64,000 nucleotides of DNA from Muribaculaceae bacterium (lineage in GTDB: Bacteria; Bacteroidota; Bacteroidia; Bacteroidales; Muribaculaceae). Below, in pieces: positions 40,819 through 55,953 of this stretch (position 1 is the first letter of the stretch; every line of letters starts with the position of its first letter). The notes under the pieces were generated by a model. It made no database searches. It was not told where the DNA came from and saw nothing but the letters and a program-made list of their open reading frames with translations. The stretch is taken from contig JAIDQZ010000041.1 in the NCBI GenBank assembly GCA_029062005.1, forward strand, positions 946 through 64,945. Direction: 5' to 3'. Made by a program: the position numbers and the translations under genes.

Positions 40819-40982
40819 AATTCGATCTCTGTGTGATGAAAATTTCAAGCAAAATTACAAAAAAATCATATACAACGGTGACATTTTTTTCTTTTTTTAT
40901 GAAGCGGGTCTTAATGCGGATTTGCCGGATAAGGGATGAATGACGATGTCGCCTTGTAATTTTGCCGAAAAAACAAATGCAA

Positions 40983-41336
40983 ATGGATATTACAGAACTT
41001 GTCACACTTGCAGGAGCCGTAGGAGGCATGCAAGGTATCGTGGAACTTGCCAGATGGTTGCGTTCCCGAAAAATGGAACAGAGAAAAGAGGATGCGGATA
41101 TTACTGCAGTGGAAAATCAAAACAGCAGGATGCAGATAGACTGGCTTGAAAAACGCCTTGCCGAGCGCGATGCAAAGATAGATGCCATCTATGCGGAATT
41201 TCGCAAGGAGCAGACTCTCCGTATAGGCGAGATACATCAGCGTCACGAAGTGGAACTGAGGCTTACAGAAGCCGAAGCACGTAAATGCCTCGTACGCGGC
41301 TGCCCGTCGCGGATCCCGCCTGAAGTCAATTCATGA
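40983..41336 (+). CDS. Holin-like protein of Bacteroidales lysis cassettes
   Basis: One N-terminal hydrophobic segment, coiled coil, C-terminal KCLVRGCPSRIPP; lies upstream of a spanin-like and an endolysin gene. Function inferred from context. Confidence 0.55.
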   Translation: MDITELVTLAGAVGGMQGIVELARWLRSRKMEQRKEDADITAVENQNSRMQIDWLEKRLAERDAKIDAIYAEFRKEQTLRIGEIHQRHEVELRLTEAEARKCLVRGCPSRIPPEVNS

Positions 41337-41427
41337 TCCATGTAATGTCCGATTTTTTATGTGATGCGACCTGAACCTTCTAACCATCAGCTTGAGCTTG
41401 CGAAAGTTGAGTAAACAAGTATTTATT

Positions 41428-41937
41428 ATGTATTCTTTAGTTTTTAAGTTTATTACCATGCTCTCCTGTGCCGCTTTGATCTCCTGCAGATCCTCAAAAC
41501 CGGCAAACATATTTTATGAAGTGAGCGATACTCTGGCAGCTTCTATCGATACGTCTTTCAGTCTGTGTAAGGATTCCTCAGTCAAGACCGAAGATAAAAT
41601 GACTCATGTCTGCGGCGTGGTGGAATTTATAGATTCAGGAGGATCTATATCAGTGGTTGCCGATGGTTCGTTGGTCATGTCAGGAGTCACATACTTGCAT
41701 TCCTCCAGACTTGACGCTTCTTCCGGAAAGGAAGATAACAGCAGTTCTTCACTTCAGATTCAAAGAAAAGACAGTCTATCGTCCTCCAAGAAAGAAGCGG
41801 TACATTCCGAATTCCAGGTCAAGGACTCCAATTCCCGAAGATTTCTTATGAAATGCATTTATATATCTGCTATCGTTATTCTCGTGTTGACACTAATCCT
41901 TGTAAAGATCCGCCCCCTTCGGAAGCGACAGGAGTAA
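41428..41937 (+). CDS. Lipoprotein with C-terminal TM helix (u-spanin-like)
   Basis: Lipobox LISC-RSS; C-terminal CIYISAIVILVLTLILV followed by KIRPLRKR. Confidence 0.6.
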   Translation: MYSLVFKFITMLSCAALISCRSSKPANIFYEVSDTLAASIDTSFSLCKDSSVKTEDKMTHVCGVVEFIDSGGSISVVADGSLVMSGVTYLHSSRLDASSGKEDNSSSSLQIQRKDSLSSSKKEAVHSEFQVKDSNSRRFLMKCIYISAIVILVLTLILVKIRPLRKRQE

Positions 41938-41950
41938 CGGAAACAAAAAT

Positions 41951-42048
41951 CTCAATCCTCAATCCTCAATTCTCAATTCTCAATCCTCAATCCTCAATCC
42001 TCAATTCTCAATTCTCAATCCTCAATCCTCAATTCTCAATTCTCAATT
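41951..42048. repeat. Heptamer array (CTCAATY) x14
   Basis: Counted 14 units, then degenerate AATTCTA copies up to the lysin start. Confidence 0.95.
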
Positions 42049-42084
42049 ATTCTAAATTCTAAATTAAAAATTCTAAATTAAAAA

Positions 42085-42648
42085 GTGGCACATCTCGAAA
42101 AATTCATCCCGTTTCTGATCTTCTGGGAAACCGGCATCAAAGACACGACGCTCGGCAATAAGCATCTGTTTGGCAAAGCTAAAGCAAAAGGCATAGCCAA
42201 TGATCCATATGACATGGGAGGGGCAACTATGGCAGGTGTGACTATAGGCACTTACCGCACATATTGTATCCGTAAAAATCGCCCTGTCCCATCTGTAAGA
42301 TCTTTGTCAAGACTGTCATATGAGGAATGGCTTGATATCCTCAAGACAATGTTCTGGGATCGTTGGCAGGCAGACAGGATACTGGATCAGAAAGTGGCGG
42401 AGATGCTTGTGGACTGGGTATGGACCAGCGGCAGCTACGGGATCACCATTCCGCAACGGCTCATAGGAGTAAAAGCAGACGGCATTGTGGGTCCGAAAAC
42501 CCTCGATGCCGTCAACAGATCTGATCCCGATGAATTATTCCGGCTTATAAAACAGGAGAGGATCGCCTACATAGACCGCATCTGCACCTCCCGTCCCGCC
42601 AACCTCCGCTTCCGCTCCGGCTGGCTTCGCCGCCTCCACGCCCTTTGA
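42085..42648 (+). CDS. GH108 N-acetylmuramidase with C-terminal peptidoglycan-binding domain (endolysin-like)
   Basis: WE...NDPYDMGGATMAGVT, VKADGIVGPKTL, NLRFRSGWLRR. Confidence 0.88.
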   Translation: MAHLEKFIPFLIFWETGIKDTTLGNKHLFGKAKAKGIANDPYDMGGATMAGVTIGTYRTYCIRKNRPVPSVRSLSRLSYEEWLDILKTMFWDRWQADRILDQKVAEMLVDWVWTSGSYGITIPQRLIGVKADGIVGPKTLDAVNRSDPDELFRLIKQERIAYIDRICTSRPANLRFRSGWLRRLHAL

Positions 42649-42852: not shown

Positions 42853-42995
42853 ATGGTATTCATTATATAGACCTTGAAGGATGCGAGCTGCGAGCTGACG
42901 ACCGCCTTCATTTCAATGGTAACGGGTGTCGTGAGGCAGCCAATCGCTTCTTCCAATGCCTACAAGATCTGGATCTCCTTCCCGTTGAAAAGTAG
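42852..42995 (+). pseudogene. 3' fragment of an SGNH/GDSL-like hydrolase gene
   Basis: YGIHYIDLEGCELRADDRLHFNGNGCREAANRFFQCL...*: a DxxH block-V-like motif with no start codon. Confidence 0.4.
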
Positions 42996-43135
42996 GTGTA
43001 AAAAACTCGCTCCAATGCGTAATATGTAAAGATGTATAAAAGAAGAAATATAAGGTGATTAATGTAGGTTGGGAGATCAGAAAAGGAGTATTCTAATAAT
43101 AATGTAACTGTTCTCCGGTAAAAGACAAGAAAGAT

Positions 43136-43666
43136 ATGAAAGATTTTGCGGCAATAGATTTCGAGACAGCCAACGGCAGCCGTTCTTCGGTATGCAGTGT
43201 CGGTATCGTCATCGTGCGTGACGGGGAAATAGCAGACAGATTCTATAGCCTTATACGTCCTACTCCCAACTATTACAGCCCTTTCACCACCCGTATTCAC
43301 GGGCTAACGCGTCGCGACACCGATACGGCTCCGAAATTCCCAGATGTATGGTCTCAGGTCCGGGACCGGATAGCAGGTCTTCCTCTTGTGGCCCATAACC
43401 GTCCGTTTGATGAAAGTTGTCTCAAGGCGGTTTTTGCTGAGTATGGGATGGATTATCCCGGCTATGAATTCCACTGCACCCTCGCAGCCTCAAGACGTAC
43501 GCTCAAGCTGCCATGTCATCAGCTACATGTAGTGGCGGCAGCCTGCGGGTATGCTCTCGACCACCACCATCACGCTCTGGCAGATGCAGAGGCATGCAGT
43601 TTTGTGTGTATTGATATACAGAGGAGATTTGGTTGGGAAGTGTTTGAAAATCAAAATCATAAATAA
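43136..43666 (+). CDS. DEDDh 3'-5' exonuclease (DnaQ-like); C-terminus supplied by the inserted element
   Basis: AIDFETAN, AHNRPFD, HHALADAEAC; the native tail is displaced to 44403-44444. Confidence 0.92.
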   Translation: MKDFAAIDFETANGSRSSVCSVGIVIVRDGEIADRFYSLIRPTPNYYSPFTTRIHGLTRRDTDTAPKFPDVWSQVRDRIAGLPLVAHNRPFDESCLKAVFAEYGMDYPGYEFHCTLAASRRTLKLPCHQLHVVAAACGYALDHHHHALADAEACSFVCIDIQRRFGWEVFENQNHK

Positions 43667-43734
43667 GGTTTTATTAGTTTTCAATAGAGAATAACAGGAT
43701 AATTTGGAACTGTTATTTAACTTAATTTAACAAT

Positions 43735-43764
43735 AAAAGAGGTATGAAAAATCATACCTCTTTT
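43735..43764. terminator. Bidirectional terminator-like palindrome
   Basis: AAAAGAGGTATGA-AAAA-TCATACCTCTTTT, 13-bp perfect stem. Confidence 0.75.
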
Positions 43765-43786
43765 TCTTATATTTTTTTGAAAAATA

Positions 43787-43818
43787 TTTGTGTAATTCAA
43801 AAATTTTCATTAACTTTG
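43787..43818 (+). promoter_or_regulatory. Bacteroidetes promoter of the peptide/RHH module
   Basis: TTTG (43787-90), 20-nt spacer, TAACTTTG (43811-18). Confidence 0.75.
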
Positions 43819-43895
43819 TAATGTCAAACAAAGGGAGTTTGACAAGGTTAAGTTTCTTCACCCGAAGTAAGAAACAAAATGAAAAGCCAATGATT

Positions 43896-43964
43896 ATGAA
43901 AGCGACCCTCAAAATTGTTTTCAAAATCTGGAAGTTTAAAATAGAACTAACATATAAGTTCTAA
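43896..43964 (+). CDS. 22-aa cationic amphipathic peptide MKATLKIVFKIWKFKIELTYKF (alternative start 43890)
   Basis: Translated by hand; promoter and A-rich initiation region upstream, hairpin directly after the stop. Below the ORF-track cutoff. Confidence 0.6.
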   Translation: MKATLKIVFKIWKFKIELTYKF

Positions 43965-43967
43965 CTT

Positions 43968-43998
43968 CCAAGGTAGGGGCAAGACCCCTACCACTTGG
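43968..43998 (+). terminator. Hairpin plus T-rich tract between the peptide and RHH genes
   Basis: CCAAG-GTAGGGG-CAAGA-CCCCTAC-CA-CTTGG followed by CTTTTCATTTTTT. Confidence 0.65.
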
Positions 43999-44042
43999 CT
44001 TTTCATTTTTTCAAACACAAAGTTAATAAAAAAAAATCAATT

Positions 44043-44249
44043 ATGGAAATCAGTCTTAAAATTGAGAAGGTTGAAAACCGAGGAGGAGCGAGAAAAGGCG
44101 CAGGACGAAAGAAAACAGAAAACAGTCGCAACATTTCAGTTGCTTGCAGTCTTTCCCCAAAGGCATATGAAAACCTACAGAAACTTGTAGAGAAGGAGGG
44201 AAGCAATAAGAATGATGTTATAAATAAGATTCTTGAGAATCTTTCCTAA
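44043..44249 (+). CDS. Small DNA-binding protein (RGGxRxGAGRK motif plus ribbon-helix-helix-like region)
   Basis: NRGGARKGAGRKK, then SVACSLSPKAYENLQKLVEKEGSNKNDVINKIL (strand-helix-helix pattern). Confidence 0.7.
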   Translation: MEISLKIEKVENRGGARKGAGRKKTENSRNISVACSLSPKAYENLQKLVEKEGSNKNDVINKILENLS

Positions 44250-44251
44250 TC

Positions 44252-44288
44252 AATAAATGAGAGTGCGTTATTTGCGCTCTCATTTATT
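44252..44288. terminator. Bidirectional terminator
   Basis: AATAAATGAGAG...CTCTCATTTATT stem. Confidence 0.75.
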
Positions 44289-44402
44289 TTATACAATAAG
44301 TCAATCATTGGAGTTTAAACTGTTCTCTTACCTTCTCAATATTTGAAAGAATAAGTTCCCTGTTGTGTTTCTTATATATACACAAGACTGTGTGCGTCTG
44401 TT

Positions 44403-44444
44403 GACGCCGAGGCCTGCGCGGCAATAGCTCTTAAAATTCTCTGA
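44403..44444 (+). pseudogene. Displaced native 3' end of the exonuclease gene (DAEACAAIALKIL*)
   Basis: GAC GCC GAG GCC TGC GCG GCA ATA GCT CTT AAA ATT CTC TGA joins in frame after HALA at 43582. Confidence 0.85.
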
Positions 44445-44694
44445 AGTGAAGAAAGTCGCTTGGAAAAGTTGATATCGGGAGGTGATAATCTATATGAAAA
44501 CTTCGTTATATAATAAAGTTACATAATAGAATAGGCGAGATATACTATACGGTATATACAAAGTCTTATGTTTTGGCAAAGCATAAACTATACAAAAAGG
44601 GTCGATGCCTTCAAATGGAACCGACCCAATCTTATTTCTATTCAATTTTTTTTATCTGACAGTAAAAAGATTAATAGATAAATTGATTTCTAAA

Positions 44695-52662: not shown

Positions 52663-55600
52663 ATGAAACTAACCTATTTTCGAATACTTGCTCTCATTGC
52701 AATGGCAGTCCCGGGAGTGACAGCCATGCATGCCGGAAAAGCAGTCTCCGGTCTAAACGCCAAAGAATTTAAGAAGTATTGGACAGTAGAATCGGAAGGA
52801 CCCTGCAAAGTCACTTTCAGGGGTGATACAGCTGAATTCACCGCGCCGAAAGGATTGAGTGTATGGCGTAAGGAAAAGATGAGCGGCAGAACAGTCATCG
52901 AATATGACGCACAGGTCGTGACTGAAAGTCCGGATGACCGGCTCAGCGATCTCAACTGCTTCTGGATGGCTTCAGATCCCAACGCTCCGGATCCTTGGAA
53001 AAACCTTAATAAAAGAGGGGGCAAGTTTGTCAATTCATATTCATTGCAATTGTATTATCTCGGTTATGGGGGTAATCACAACTCCACCACACGTTTCCGC
53101 CGCTACAATGGCGATGCCAGAGGTGTGGATGATCCGGAGTATCGTCCCGTCGTAATTACAGAGTATACCGATGCCGACCACCTTCTGAAACCGGGCAAGT
53201 GGTATCATATCAAGATCACTCATGACGGTCTGCGCACACAATATTTCATTGACGGCGAGCGTCTGGTAGATTTTCGCGATCCTGCTCCTCTTACAGAAGG
53301 ATGGTTCGCATTCCGCACTACGCTCAGCCGAACCCGGATGACCAACTTCTCTTATTCTTGCGAACCCCTTCAGGAGACCGAAGTTCCTCTCGCGTGGGTA
53401 GGAAAGGCACCTGAATCGGATGTGCCGGTGACATTCGGCGTGCCGTTTGATGCCGGTGCTGTCACAAAGACGACACCGTTGTCCATCGCTTCCGGAGCTT
53501 TGGAAATCCCCACGGAAAGCTGGCCTCTTGCATTCTGGCCTGACGGCACGGTGAAATGGGCAGCTGTTTCCGGCACCATACCGGCTGGAGCTGACAATCT
53601 CACAGTGTGCATCGGAACCCGGGACAAGAAGTCACCGGATAAGGTAAAAAAGCATCTTCTGGCAGAAGATGACGGAAATCGCATAGTGGTGCGGGCAGGC
53701 AATTCTAACGTCTATATCCCCAAAGTCTCTTCGTCGGTGCACACAGTAGAAAATATCATAGATTCAATTGTGACCGCGGGCGTAAAGACTGCTGTCGACG
53801 GTCATCTTGTGGGGACTGTGAAGGATTCTCCCTATGAGGGTTCTGTATCTTCTGCTTCCATGAAGAGCAGGCTGCTATATTCCGGTATCGAGCGAAACGG
53901 TGCCGAGCGGGCTGTGATATTACTGAAAGGAGTTCACAGATCGGAAGATGGACGTGAATGGCTCCCATGGACAGTCCGTCTGATCGCATCGGGTACGAGC
54001 CCCGAAATCAAGATGACTCATTCTTTCATTTTTGACGGAGACCAGGATAAGGATTTCATTTCATCACTCGGCATTGCCTTCGGCGTGCCTATGAGAGAAC
54101 GTACATACAACCGGCATGTAGCCTTCTCCACTGCAGACGGCGGCGTATGGAGCGAGCCTGTGCAGCCGCTTGTGGGCAGACGAGTGCTCCGAAATCCTGA
54201 GACCGGTCAGTTCACCCCGTCAGTTCAGGAAATGCAGATGAAGGGAGAAAGAGTCTTCGATTATTCCGAATTTGATGATGCCGGACAAAAGCTTATCGAC
54301 GAATGGGCGGAGTGGGACGGTTTCCGTCTGTCGCAGAATGGTCCTGATGGATTCACAATACGCAAGAAAGCGACTTCGGGATCGCCGTGGATAGGCACTT
54401 ATGGAGGACATCGTGCCGACGGAGCCGTCTATGCCGGAGATGTGACAGGAGGATTGACAATATCAATGAAAGACTTCTGGCAGTCATATCCTTCCGGACT
54501 TGAGGTGGAGGGTGCGCGGACTCCTGTCGCTACCATTACAGCATGGCTCTGGAATCCGGATGCATCGCCGATGGATCTCCGCCACTACGATGAGCGCCCG
54601 CATGGCCTGAATTCAAGCTATGAGGACGTGCAGGAAGGAATGAGCACGCCTTACGGCATTGCCCGCACATCGAGTATCACCATACGCCCCGACGAAGGCT
54701 ACAGGGGCAAACAGAACTTTTCCGCCAATGCGGCTGCAGCCGGACTTGAGAGTGTGTTGCTCCCGACTCCCGACTATCTGCACCGGCACAAGGCATTCGG
54801 CATATGGGGCCTGCCTGACCGTTCTACCCCCTCACGAGCCGAGGTAGAAGATCGTCTTGACGATTATGCTGATTTCTATAAGCATGCAATCGAAGAAAAC
54901 CGCTGGTATGGATTCTGGAATTACGGTGACGTGATGCACGCCTATGACCCCGTACGCCATGAATGGCGATATGACGTGGGCGGATATGCCTGGGACAATA
55001 CAGAGCTCGGCAGCAATCTCTGGCTATGGTATCAGTTTCTGCGCACGGCGGATCCGGAGCTATGGAGAATGGCTACAGCCATGACCCGGCATGCATCGGA
55101 AGTGGATGTGTATCATATCGGTCCCAATGCAGGTCTCGGCAGCCGCCACAATGTCAGCCACTGGGGGTGTGGTGCAAAAGAGGCACGTATCAGTCAGGCG
55201 GGATTTAACCGTATCATGTATTATCTCACCGCGGACGAACGGCTCGGCGACCTTATGAGCGACGTCACCGATTCGGATCATAAATTATATACGATAGATC
55301 CTATGCGTCTTGCACAGCCCCGTGAGCAATATCCCTGCAGTGCCCCTGCCAGACTACGCTTCGGACCGGACTGGCTTGCGTATGCCGGCAACTGGATGAC
55401 AGAATGGGAGAGAACCGGAAATACAGCCTACCGCGACAAGATAAAGGCTGGAATGAAGAGTATATGTGCGCTTCCGAGCAGGCTCTTCACCGGACCGCTT
55501 GCCCTCGGATATGATCCAGCCACAGGCGTGATAACATCGGAATGCGACCCTGCTCTTCAGACCACCAACCACCTTATGACAATCATGGGAGGATTCGAGA

Positions 55601-55953
55601 TCAACAATGAGCTTATGGATCTGATTCCTGACGAAGACTGGGAAGACGCATGGCTTGAGCATGCGGCGCATTATAAGCATAAGGCACGTGAGATATTGCG
55701 CAATAAATTCAGGGTGTCACGTCTGCAGTCTTATGCAGCGTGGAAACTTGGCGACAAGGCGCTCGCCGAGGAGGCTTGGCACGATCTCATGACCACTTCC
55801 GAGCATGCGGAGGCCCCGCGTATGGAAGTGAGCGTGATTGAAGGGGCGGAGGTTCCGGCTCCGTTGCATGAGGCATCACCGATCAGTACCAACGACGCCG
55901 CGCTCTGGAGTCTTGATGCTATATATATGCAGGAAGTGATACCACGTGATTAA
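52663..55953 (+). CDS. DUF6250-like lectin-fold domain fused to an exo-rhamnogalacturonan lyase (PL26/YetA-like)
   Basis: N-terminal SDLNCFWMA...YYLGYGGNHNSTTRFRRY; C-terminal WYGFWNYGDVMHAYD..RHEWRYDVGGYAWDNTE and GLGSRHNVSHWG. Confidence 0.75.
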   Translation: MKLTYFRILALIAMAVPGVTAMHAGKAVSGLNAKEFKKYWTVESEGPCKVTFRGDTAEFTAPKGLSVWRKEKMSGRTVIEYDAQVVTESPDDRLSDLNCFWMASDPNAPDPWKNLNKRGGKFVNSYSLQLYYLGYGGNHNSTTRFRRYNGDARGVDDPEYRPVVITEYTDADHLLKPGKWYHIKITHDGLRTQYFIDGERLVDFRDPAPLTEGWFAFRTTLSRTRMTNFSYSCEPLQETEVPLAWVGKAPESDVPVTFGVPFDAGAVTKTTPLSIASGALEIPTESWPLAFWPDGTVKWAAVSGTIPAGADNLTVCIGTRDKKSPDKVKKHLLAEDDGNRIVVRAGNSNVYIPKVSSSVHTVENIIDSIVTAGVKTAVDGHLVGTVKDSPYEGSVSSASMKSRLLYSGIERNGAERAVILLKGVHRSEDGREWLPWTVRLIASGTSPEIKMTHSFIFDGDQDKDFISSLGIAFGVPMRERTYNRHVAFSTADGGVWSEPVQPLVGRRVLRNPETGQFTPSVQEMQMKGERVFDYSEFDDAGQKLIDEWAEWDGFRLSQNGPDGFTIRKKATSGSPWIGTYGGHRADGAVYAGDVTGGLTISMKDFWQSYPSGLEVEGARTPVATITAWLWNPDASPMDLRHYDERPHGLNSSYEDVQEGMSTPYGIARTSSITIRPDEGYRGKQNFSANAAAAGLESVLLPTPDYLHRHKAFGIWGLPDRSTPSRAEVEDRLDDYADFYKHAIEENRWYGFWNYGDVMHAYDPVRHEWRYDVGGYAWDNTELGSNLWLWYQFLRTADPELWRMATAMTRHASEVDVYHIGPNAGLGSRHNVSHWGCGAKEARISQAGFNRIMYYLTADERLGDLMSDVTDSDHKLYTIDPMRLAQPREQYPCSAPARLRFGPDWLAYAGNWMTEWERTGNTAYRDKIKAGMKSICALPSRLFTGPLALGYDPATGVITSECDPALQTTNHLMTIMGGFEINNELMDLIPDEDWEDAWLEHAAHYKHKAREILRNKFRVSRLQSYAAWKLGDKALAEEAWHDLMTTSEHAEAPRMEVSVIEGAEVPAPLHEASPISTNDAALWSLDAIYMQEVIPRD

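Follow-up and report, generated by a model that had tools for sequence, protein, structure and literature searches.

An 818-bp recombinase-less insert in a Muribaculaceae exonuclease gene, probably derived from an element that uses a large serine recombinase

Results

An insert near the 3' end of a DEDDh exonuclease gene

The window analysed here is a 64,000-nucleotide stretch of a Muribaculaceae genome (GenBank assembly GCA_029062005.1, contig JAIDQZ010000041.1, forward strand). It contains a gene for a DEDDh exonuclease, near whose 3' end two GA dinucleotides (43583-84 and 44403-04) bracket an 818-bp insert, 43585-44402. The host-derived body of the exonuclease ends at 43584. After ...HHHHALAD the frame runs on into foreign sequence until a stop at 43666, and the new C-terminus, SFVCIDIQRRFGWEVFENQNHK-stop, comes from the insert. 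We put at roughly 70% the probability that the insert is derived from an integrative element dependent on a large serine recombinase (LSR), probably a temperate phage, and is itself non-autonomous. The features that bear most directly on this reading are listed below, with attachment (att) sites named as they would be for such an element.

43136..43666, + strand: DEDDh (RNase_T family) exonuclease in its present reading frame, from the list of open reading frames (ORFs); 176 amino acids; Pfam PF00929, E 3e-17
43583..43584, + strand: attL crossover dinucleotide GA, bases 1-2 of the Asp codon in ...HALAD-AEAC (ExoIII motif)
43585..43611, + strand: P' arm, the left 27-nt inverted repeat, which also codes for AEACSFVCI; motif GTTTTGTGT at positions 15-23 from the core
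44376..44402, + strand: P arm, the right 27-nt inverted repeat; its outer ATATACACAA matches the right arm of an LSR element in genome G488 (described below) at 10/10 positions
44403..44404, + strand: attR crossover dinucleotide GA, read from the sequence
44405..44444, + strand: displaced native 3' end of the exonuclease, (D)AEACAAIALKIL-stop, frame intact; 40 bases, CGCCGAGGCC...CTCTGA

The crossover dinucleotide is identical at both junctions and non-palindromic, and the bases next to it differ on either side. When the flanks are joined at GA in silico, the reconstructed empty site reads ...CACGCTCTGGCA-GA-CGCCGAGGCC... and encodes a 162-amino-acid protein, ...HHHHALADAEACAAIALKIL-stop, with the end DAEACAAIALKIL-stop. 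The corresponding circle junction, attP, reads ...GTGTGCGTCTGTT-GA-TGCAGAGGCATGC.... A preliminary description of this DNA had placed 818 bp between the two GA dinucleotides and proposed that their excision restores the exonuclease. The sequence is as described, and the joined flanks give the 162-amino-acid form that is the norm in the genus; a small correction is that the stop of the displaced tail lies at 44442-44444.

The arms of the insert form an LSR-like attP

Counted outward from GA, the two 27-nt arms match as inverted repeats at 20/27 positions, and the sub-arms 43587-43611 and 44376-44400 are 80% complementary. Measured at fixed positions against the full set of 6.1 million 27-mers in the host genome, a match of at least 20/27 had a frequency of 6.5e-7, which bears out the symmetry noted in the preliminary description. 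The attP of an LSR consists of the crossover plus imperfectly dyad-symmetric half-sites and spans about 50 bp (PMC3783163). The window attP fits this form, with two imperfectly symmetric half-sites (20/27) over ~50 bp.

A recombinase-bearing element lies at the same dinucleotide

A scan for the short exonuclease tail turned up orphan tails that lack a gene body, one of them 50 nt from the end of contig C109 of G488, a Sangeribacter genome of the same genus as the host. In G488 the exonuclease body stands at the end of contig C49 with a second type of tail (type 2). The left junction, at that contig end, reads ...CATCACGCTCTTGCC-GA-CGCCGTTGCCGCTGGTTATGTGTGGTA... (...CTTGCC-GA), and the right junction, on another contig end, reads ...AAATATACACAACCCCTCTCAACGGTG-GA-CGCTGAAGCATGCGCT... 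(...ATATACACAACCCCTCTCAACGGTG-GA-CGCTGAAGCATGC...). Joining the attL and attR flanks restores HHHALADAEACAAIALKIL-stop. The G488 arms are dyad-symmetric at 16/27 positions (background frequency 1.3e-4), with an inner palindrome CAACGGTG/CGCCGTTG.

A gapped pattern made from the attR junction matched the same G488 contig in GTDB and two metagenome contigs, L136 and L137, and GA is the junction in all three. The metagenome from which the G488/L136 element comes includes contigs WFLX010017330.1 and WFLX010146325.1, with CAYQXG010000109.1 among the contigs of the metagenome-assembled genome. Contig L136 reaches 826 bp into the element, where a serine recombinase gene starts 83 nt from GA and reads inward. 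Its product (MKKNEKAIVFVRVSTQRQ...) is open for at least 255 amino acids to the contig end, with a PF00239 Resolvase domain over residues 7-160. Residues 5-254 are 54% identical to a complete 537-amino-acid protein of genome G450 (Resolvase, Recombinase and Zn_ribbon_recom), which its domain content marks as an LSR. The element end in L137 is identical to that in L136 (96/96 nt) and sits in another exonuclease allele with another flank; the identity stops inside GACGC. Because the same element end adjoins different alleles, insertion of an LSR-bearing element at this GA has taken place in at least two different hosts or alleles. Neither the right end of the G488 element nor relatives of the L136 recombinase were found in IMG/VR.

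Before this element came to light, we viewed the insert as a tyrosine-integrase prophage remnant or the product of plain homologous tail exchange, given the insert-free long tails in G317, L069, L070 and L095 and the occurrence of the ribbon-helix-helix (RHH) module of the insert in unrelated prophages. That view was dropped because the orphan-tail scan and the gapped attR pattern revealed the LSR element. An inverton was also considered, in which inversion would give the tail DADAHSLVYI-stop; it leaves the displaced tail unaccounted for.

The two elements share motifs in register

Read from the core outward, the four half-sites are TGCAGAGGCATGCAGTTTTGTGTGTAT (window P'), AACAGACGCACACAGTCTTGTGTATAT (window P, reverse complement), CGCCGTTGCCGCTGGTTATGTGTGGTA (G488 P') and CACCGTTGAGAGGGGTTGTGTATATTT (G488 P, reverse complement). 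C3, G5 and G8 are common to 4/4, and GTTnTGTGT occupies positions 15-23 in 4/4, with the exceptions C17 in window P and A22 in G488 P. The word common to the P sides, ATATACACAA, has 16 occurrences among 6.1 million positions of the organism's own genome. The larger LSR-carrying element that the preliminary description had hoped to find at this gene thus exists at the same GA, in G488, L136 and L137, and its arms share the in-register 9-nt motif.

In an LSR half-site the recombinase domain recognises the inner part and the zinc-ribbon domain the outer motif; by the A118 rule, the outer motif of attB lies ~5 bp nearer the core than that of attP (both PMC3783163). In the reconstructed empty site, positions 10-18 of the B arm read GTGATGGTG, a shift of exactly 5 nt towards the core relative to the P-arm motif, and the B' arm has nothing comparable. 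The window and G488 elements do not agree in the inner 14 nt of their arms, so the L136 recombinase is a relative and not a proven cognate of the window element, which would need a related enzyme rather than this one.

The spacing of the repeats also allows a tyrosine recombinase to be considered. CTnDOT IntDOT and NBU1 IntN1, both from Bacteroidota, are tyrosine recombinases reported to tolerate heterology in the overlap region. An enzyme of this kind would take as its overlap the 6 nt between the arms (TTGATG in attP, CAGACG in attB), since the repeats begin 2 nt from GA on each side, and the host genome has 13 tyrosine-recombinase matches on other contigs. However, in place of the identical 6-8-bp overlap in attP and attB that marks tyrosine-recombinase elements in general, the spacer agrees at 3/6 positions only, and the exchange point is apparently confined to GA. 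Arms of 25-27 nt spanning ~56 bp suit an LSR attP better than short core sites (site sizes from PMC3783163 and PMC12286644), and the sole seen end of the related element holds a serine recombinase gene in the usual integrase position. We consider a tyrosine recombinase very unlikely.

The unit is single copy and its host genome lacks an LSR

No second copy of either arm, the attP junction or the unit was found in the organism's own genome (completeness 95.7%). No other copy turned up in 300 genomes from the family or in 221 from the genus, the matches being short promoter-like ones plus the left 104 bp of the insert in G317. No copy of the element or its arms was found in plasmids or phages, and exact arm and attP patterns were absent from IMG/VR, metagenome contigs and GTDB contigs. 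A generic attP pattern gave three chance matches in IMG/VR, none near a recombinase.

As the preliminary description had stated, no recombinase or transposase is encoded inside the insert or elsewhere in the window. The whole contig was likewise free of domains of serine recombinases, of tyrosine recombinases and of rve-type transposases. Across the host genome there are only two serine recombinases, both small (~220 and ~250 amino acids), and no LSR, no homologue of the L136 recombinase and no rve-domain gene; the 13 tyrosine-recombinase matches all lie on contigs other than that of the window. The two small enzymes, on contigs C86 and C144, were rejected as the source of the insertion, being unrelated to the L136 enzyme. 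At C144:26542-28398 the recombinase gene is followed by one for a 396-amino-acid protein without a Pfam match, at a contig end beside housekeeping genes; C86 (8.5 kb) is phage- or plasmid-like DNA.

This inventory bears on a transposon-like origin. Like IS30-type elements, the insert is flanked by a direct repeat of 2 bp and ends in imperfect inverted repeats ~26 nt long, so that it could be read as a miniature inverted-repeat transposable element (MITE) moved by an IS30-like DDE transposase, with a 2-bp GA target duplication and 26-nt terminal inverted repeats. Yet it is single copy in all collections, the genome lacks an rve-domain gene, the two terminal bases mismatch, and the left 'repeat' is in-frame homologous coding sequence of the target gene. 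The preliminary description had named the same ends at unrelated targets with a DDE transposase as evidence for this alternative; the ends were found neither at any other target nor beside such a transposase, and we regard the alternative as practically excluded.

Uninterrupted genes and variable tails across the genus

Of the 221 genomes of the genus, 171 have the exonuclease gene, mostly full length and uninterrupted, in the 162-amino-acid form with the short tail. A degenerate pattern for the short tail matched 105 genomes (reversed control pattern, 0), and the closest database proteins, 88-90% identical, are all short-tailed. The empty attB, which the preliminary description had proposed to look for in Bacteroidales genomes, is found in many congeners. 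All these empty sites belong to sister species; within the species itself none was found, the lone other contig of the strain being 100% identical.

Across the genus the tail type switches exactly after DAEA(C), between the short tail and at least three longer types. Near-identical gene bodies carry different tails (short in G306 and P0160, type 1 in G317, type 3 in P0220), and G480 and G491 share their left context, with 59 nt identical up to GA and divergence from the first base after it. Downstream flanks diverge between species from the stop codon on, and the orientation of the gene relative to its neighbours flips. By itself the tail-switch pattern could reflect either a site-specific or a homology-driven process. 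No recombinase was found in the alternative-tail contexts P0016, P0017, P0161 and P0206.

The homology-driven possibility, applied to the window, is a scar of homology-facilitated illegitimate recombination, formed without a site-specific enzyme: a foreign long-tail allele together with phage DNA would have entered through a homologous crossover in the gene body and been joined through GA microhomology to the last 41 bp of the resident gene. The insert is indeed composed of gene fragments, the locus is heavily rearranged among species, and G473 shows a comparable arrangement, with 780 bp inserted between two copies of the tail but no inverted repeats. Moreover, any homologous 3' fragment 'restores' the ORF at a homologous position, and so the clean restoration is not independent evidence of precise insertion. 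Such a scar would, however, leave unexplained both the 20/27 inverted repeat symmetric about GA and the motif that the arms have in common, in register, with those of the recombinase-bearing element at that GA. In addition, the rise in identity to G317, from 62-72% to 87.5%, falls at the junction rather than within the gene body. We consider a recombination scar unlikely.

Several further observations concern the exonuclease gene and its surroundings. In L131 (G473:C5), positions 1040-2341 hold a full short-tail exonuclease gene, then ~780 bp with a minus-strand gene for a small lipoprotein, then an orphan second tail with flank; the ~780-bp insert has no terminal inverted repeats. In G402, which equals G521 here (L121/L125, 10001-11330), an exonuclease with a type-3 tail (...DAEAAVWITLYLQNELGIDLADF-stop) ends an HTH-WYL-RtcB operon, and 180 bp beyond the tail lies a gene for a 209-amino-acid small serine recombinase, followed by DprA-like, AAA and kinase genes. 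This recombinase was rejected as an integrase of the tail site, as the genome has no displaced tail and the site no inverted-repeat partner. Decayed exonuclease genes lie downstream of WYL-type regulator genes in L096 (G313:C1, 10385-10855), L133 and L134; one of them consists of a regulator N-terminus joined to the final 47 codons of the exonuclease, next to an AAA/vWA/PLD island, and two copies are internally deleted.

A motif of ~90 nt (...AAAAATACGCACTCCACTGCGTAAAATGTAAAGA.ATGTATAAAAGG...) is conserved upstream of the exonuclease gene (window 42990-43075; L045 5486-5581 and 6390-6473; L035 88-200). It flanks the gene on both sides in G317, like a repeat-flanked cassette, and is single copy in the organism's own genome. 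After the exonuclease stop, the motif AAAGTCGCTTGGAAAAGTTGA occurs once in the window (44449-44472) and three times in tandem in G306 (L098), with similar copies behind both G473 tails. Species differ in how a holin-like/lipoprotein/GH108 lysis cassette (window 40962-42648) and the exonuclease gene are arranged (comparison with L128, L123 and L045): the exonuclease lies between holin and GH108 in G482 and is convergent with GH108 in G491, and G317 has no lysis cassette. The orientation of the exonuclease also flips relative to a gene for a 1096-amino-acid protein (window 52663-55953) and to tatAC.

The 818 bp are a patchwork

The insert is composed of an alternative exonuclease tail, a hairpin, a phage moron (accessory cassette) module and a truncated Mom-like fragment, and it has no replication, packaging or integration genes. 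An Rfam scan gave nothing meaningful. Its parts are as follows.

43585..43688, + strand: alternative exonuclease tail plus 22 nt, 87.5% identical to the G317 tail (neighbouring gene body just 62-72%)
43735..43764: perfect 13-bp stem hairpin, terminator-like, behind the exonuclease tail (inverted-repeat search)
43761..44257, + strand: phage moron module with promoter, small peptide ORF, hairpins and RHH gene; 68-84% DNA identity to modules in several prophage contexts
43787-43818, + strand: promoter-like TTTG/TAACTTTG, Bacteroidota-type, within the moron module
43890..43964, + strand: small ORF MIMKATLKIVFKIWKFKIELTYKF-stop (MKATLKIVFKIWKFKIELTYKF and variants), 22 amino acids; MKAT(L/C/I)KIVFK..KF-stop in all module homologues, 22-24 amino acids
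44043..44249, + strand: 68-amino-acid RHH protein; weak PF01402 match, below cut-off; phrog_876 'transcriptional repressor', E 3e-4
44252..44288: hairpin resembling a terminator, which separates the RHH gene from the mom fragment convergent with it (inverted-repeat search)
44305..44373, - strand: 3'-terminal fragment of a Mom-like gene, ~22 codons plus stop, ...KKHNRELILSNIEKVREQFKLQ-stop; blastn to the L046 Mom gene, E 6e-6

Remoter versions of the long tail of the window sit insert-free in other taxa. In other settings the module at 43761-44257 precedes DUF5053-HNH-terminase-portal genes or a Mom-like gene, or stands beside a tyrosine integrase and lysis genes, and homologues of the RHH gene adjoin terminase, Mom and integrase genes. 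Judged by these contexts, the module appears to behave like a phage moron, and the RHH protein is a probable DNA-binding regulator.

The peptide ORF is enclosed by a perfect 15-nt long-range stem (43876-43890/43995-44009). Over this region (43876-44009) the peptide is conserved in amino-acid sequence across seven divergent modules, and a GC hairpin with a T-run then stands just upstream of the RHH gene. The region could be a leader or attenuator, or a type I-like toxin transcript. The preliminary description had suggested that the unit is maintained by an addiction module. This is not borne out, in that the peptide and RHH protein matched no toxin-antitoxin or defence model in Pfam, PHROG or PADLOC.

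In the closest relatives of the module, the RHH gene is followed by a Mom gene in the same orientation. In the window the Mom fragment (...KKHNRELILSNIEKVREQFKLQ-stop, which compares with ...DKKINRELIRKNIEKVRE... of L046; Mom family PF25680/phrog_1384) is inverted and truncated 2 nt short of the right arm. Mom-like genes lie 1-1,100 bp from the end of most of the IMG/VR viral contigs L100-L120 (~27-37 kb where complete) and point outward; this resembles Mu-like phages, in which mom is outward-pointing near the end.

Discussion

The observations at this locus can be put together in the following model. Elements of this family would insert by conservative site-specific recombination, with a 2-bp crossover at the GA of the Asp codon that follows the ExoIII histidine. 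Each attP would comprise two dyad-symmetric arms of ~27 nt, with the P' arm doubling as a replacement C-terminus, and the interrupted exonuclease would stay open because this arm supplies it. As judged from the reading frame, the replacement C-terminus appears to be a working one, so that the target gene would survive. We infer that the insertion in the window was made by the same kind of enzyme as the one seen in L136, an LSR, and that the present 818-bp form arose through internal deletion. The recombinase gene and nearly all cargo would have been lost, leaving attL, attR, the replacement tail, the moron and the last 22 mom codons. Since the host genome has no LSR, the element would now be stranded there. 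Excision or movement would require a cognate integrase in trans, plus a directionality factor in the case of excision.

Several points weigh against this model. There is no sign of movement or excision of the window element in the data compared. The element is single copy everywhere searched, and no cognate recombinase with matching inner arms was found; the inner 14 nt of the arms set it apart from the G488 element, and the L136 recombinase is known as an N-terminal fragment only. The left arm is ordinary coding sequence of the long-tail variant, which is found insert-free in other taxa (L069, L070). Finally, the dyad symmetry of attB is weak (9/27), with no clear zinc-ribbon motif on its B' side.

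A related question is whether the unit is a relic or a maintained satellite, that is, a selected sub-kilobase unit consisting of two LSR arms with peptide and RHH cargo, which rides the integrase and directionality factor of incoming LSR phages. Such a unit would account for the retention of both arms to within 2 nt of their outer edges while all else between was lost, and for the intact and conserved cargo ORFs; the G488 contigs break at both element ends, as expected for an insertion that is variable in the population. On the other hand, all collections together have only one copy, no cognate LSR is known, and one of the genes in the unit is a dead fragment. The phage moron and the cut-off mom sequence suggest that the unit is what is left of a larger element. 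A stranded derivative is preferred over an active satellite because the unit is unique, the genome contains no helper, no cognate enzyme is known and the mom fragment is dead. The evidence therefore leans towards a relic, and we regard a maintained satellite as a minor possibility. If it were true, the unit would be an LSR-dependent counterpart of a MITE that hops between exonuclease alleles on the integrases of passing phages, swapping the C-terminus each time, and the tail polymorphism of Sangeribacter would be the footprint of such traffic.

For the preferred reading of a stranded derivative, the analysis defines a natural LSR integration site in the ExoIII-motif codons of a DEDDh exonuclease gene that is widespread in Muribaculaceae. 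Such a site may explain the hypervariability of the exonuclease tail and the synteny breaks at one codon across the genus. It also provides two natural attP/attB pairs, one with partial integrase sequence and one a minimal 818-bp cargo unit with both junctions intact. These pairs offer a test case for LSR mobilisation of non-autonomous elements in gut Bacteroidota, and their sites are possible tools for a group that is poor in genetic tools.

Comparison with known systems

That LSR elements insert into genes, and that recombinase-less units can be bounded by LSR sites, is well known. New here are the Muribaculaceae host, the target in ExoIII-motif codons with a replacement tail in the P' arm, and the very small size of the non-autonomous unit.

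Examples of LSR elements inside genes are Listeria A118 in comK, SPbeta in spsM, skin in sigK, and Tn4451 and Tn5397 with TnpX and TndX. Like these in-gene prophages and elements, the window unit has a 2-bp non-palindromic crossover, an imperfect-dyad attP of ~50 bp and a protein-coding target, and the related element at the exonuclease site has a serine recombinase gene beside attP. It is unlike them in lacking a recombinase and in being sub-kilobase, in that its P' arm gives a replacement C-terminus so that the target is not split, and in its host, a member of the Bacteroidota (Muribaculaceae).

Staphylococcal pseudo-SCC (SCC, staphylococcal cassette chromosome) and the arginine catabolic mobile element (ACME) are recombinase-less units bounded by Ccr att repeats that depend on CcrAB, an LSR, in trans. 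They share with the window unit an arrangement of cargo between LSR att sites without a recombinase of its own, for which movement is possible only in trans. However, they range in length from kilobases to tens of kilobases, are located at orfX and have been shown to be mobilised, whereas the window unit measures 818 bp and has no helper in its genome.

Internally deleted prophage remnants would likewise combine a phage moron and a truncated mom with the loss of replication, packaging and integration genes, but the window unit keeps both att junctions precisely, which ordinary decay does not require. MITEs are also small, with terminal inverted repeats, a short flanking direct repeat and no enzyme gene. 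The window unit differs from them in being single copy in a genome without a DDE (rve) enzyme, in the homology of its left end to the coding sequence of its target, and in having ends that match those of a serine-recombinase element.

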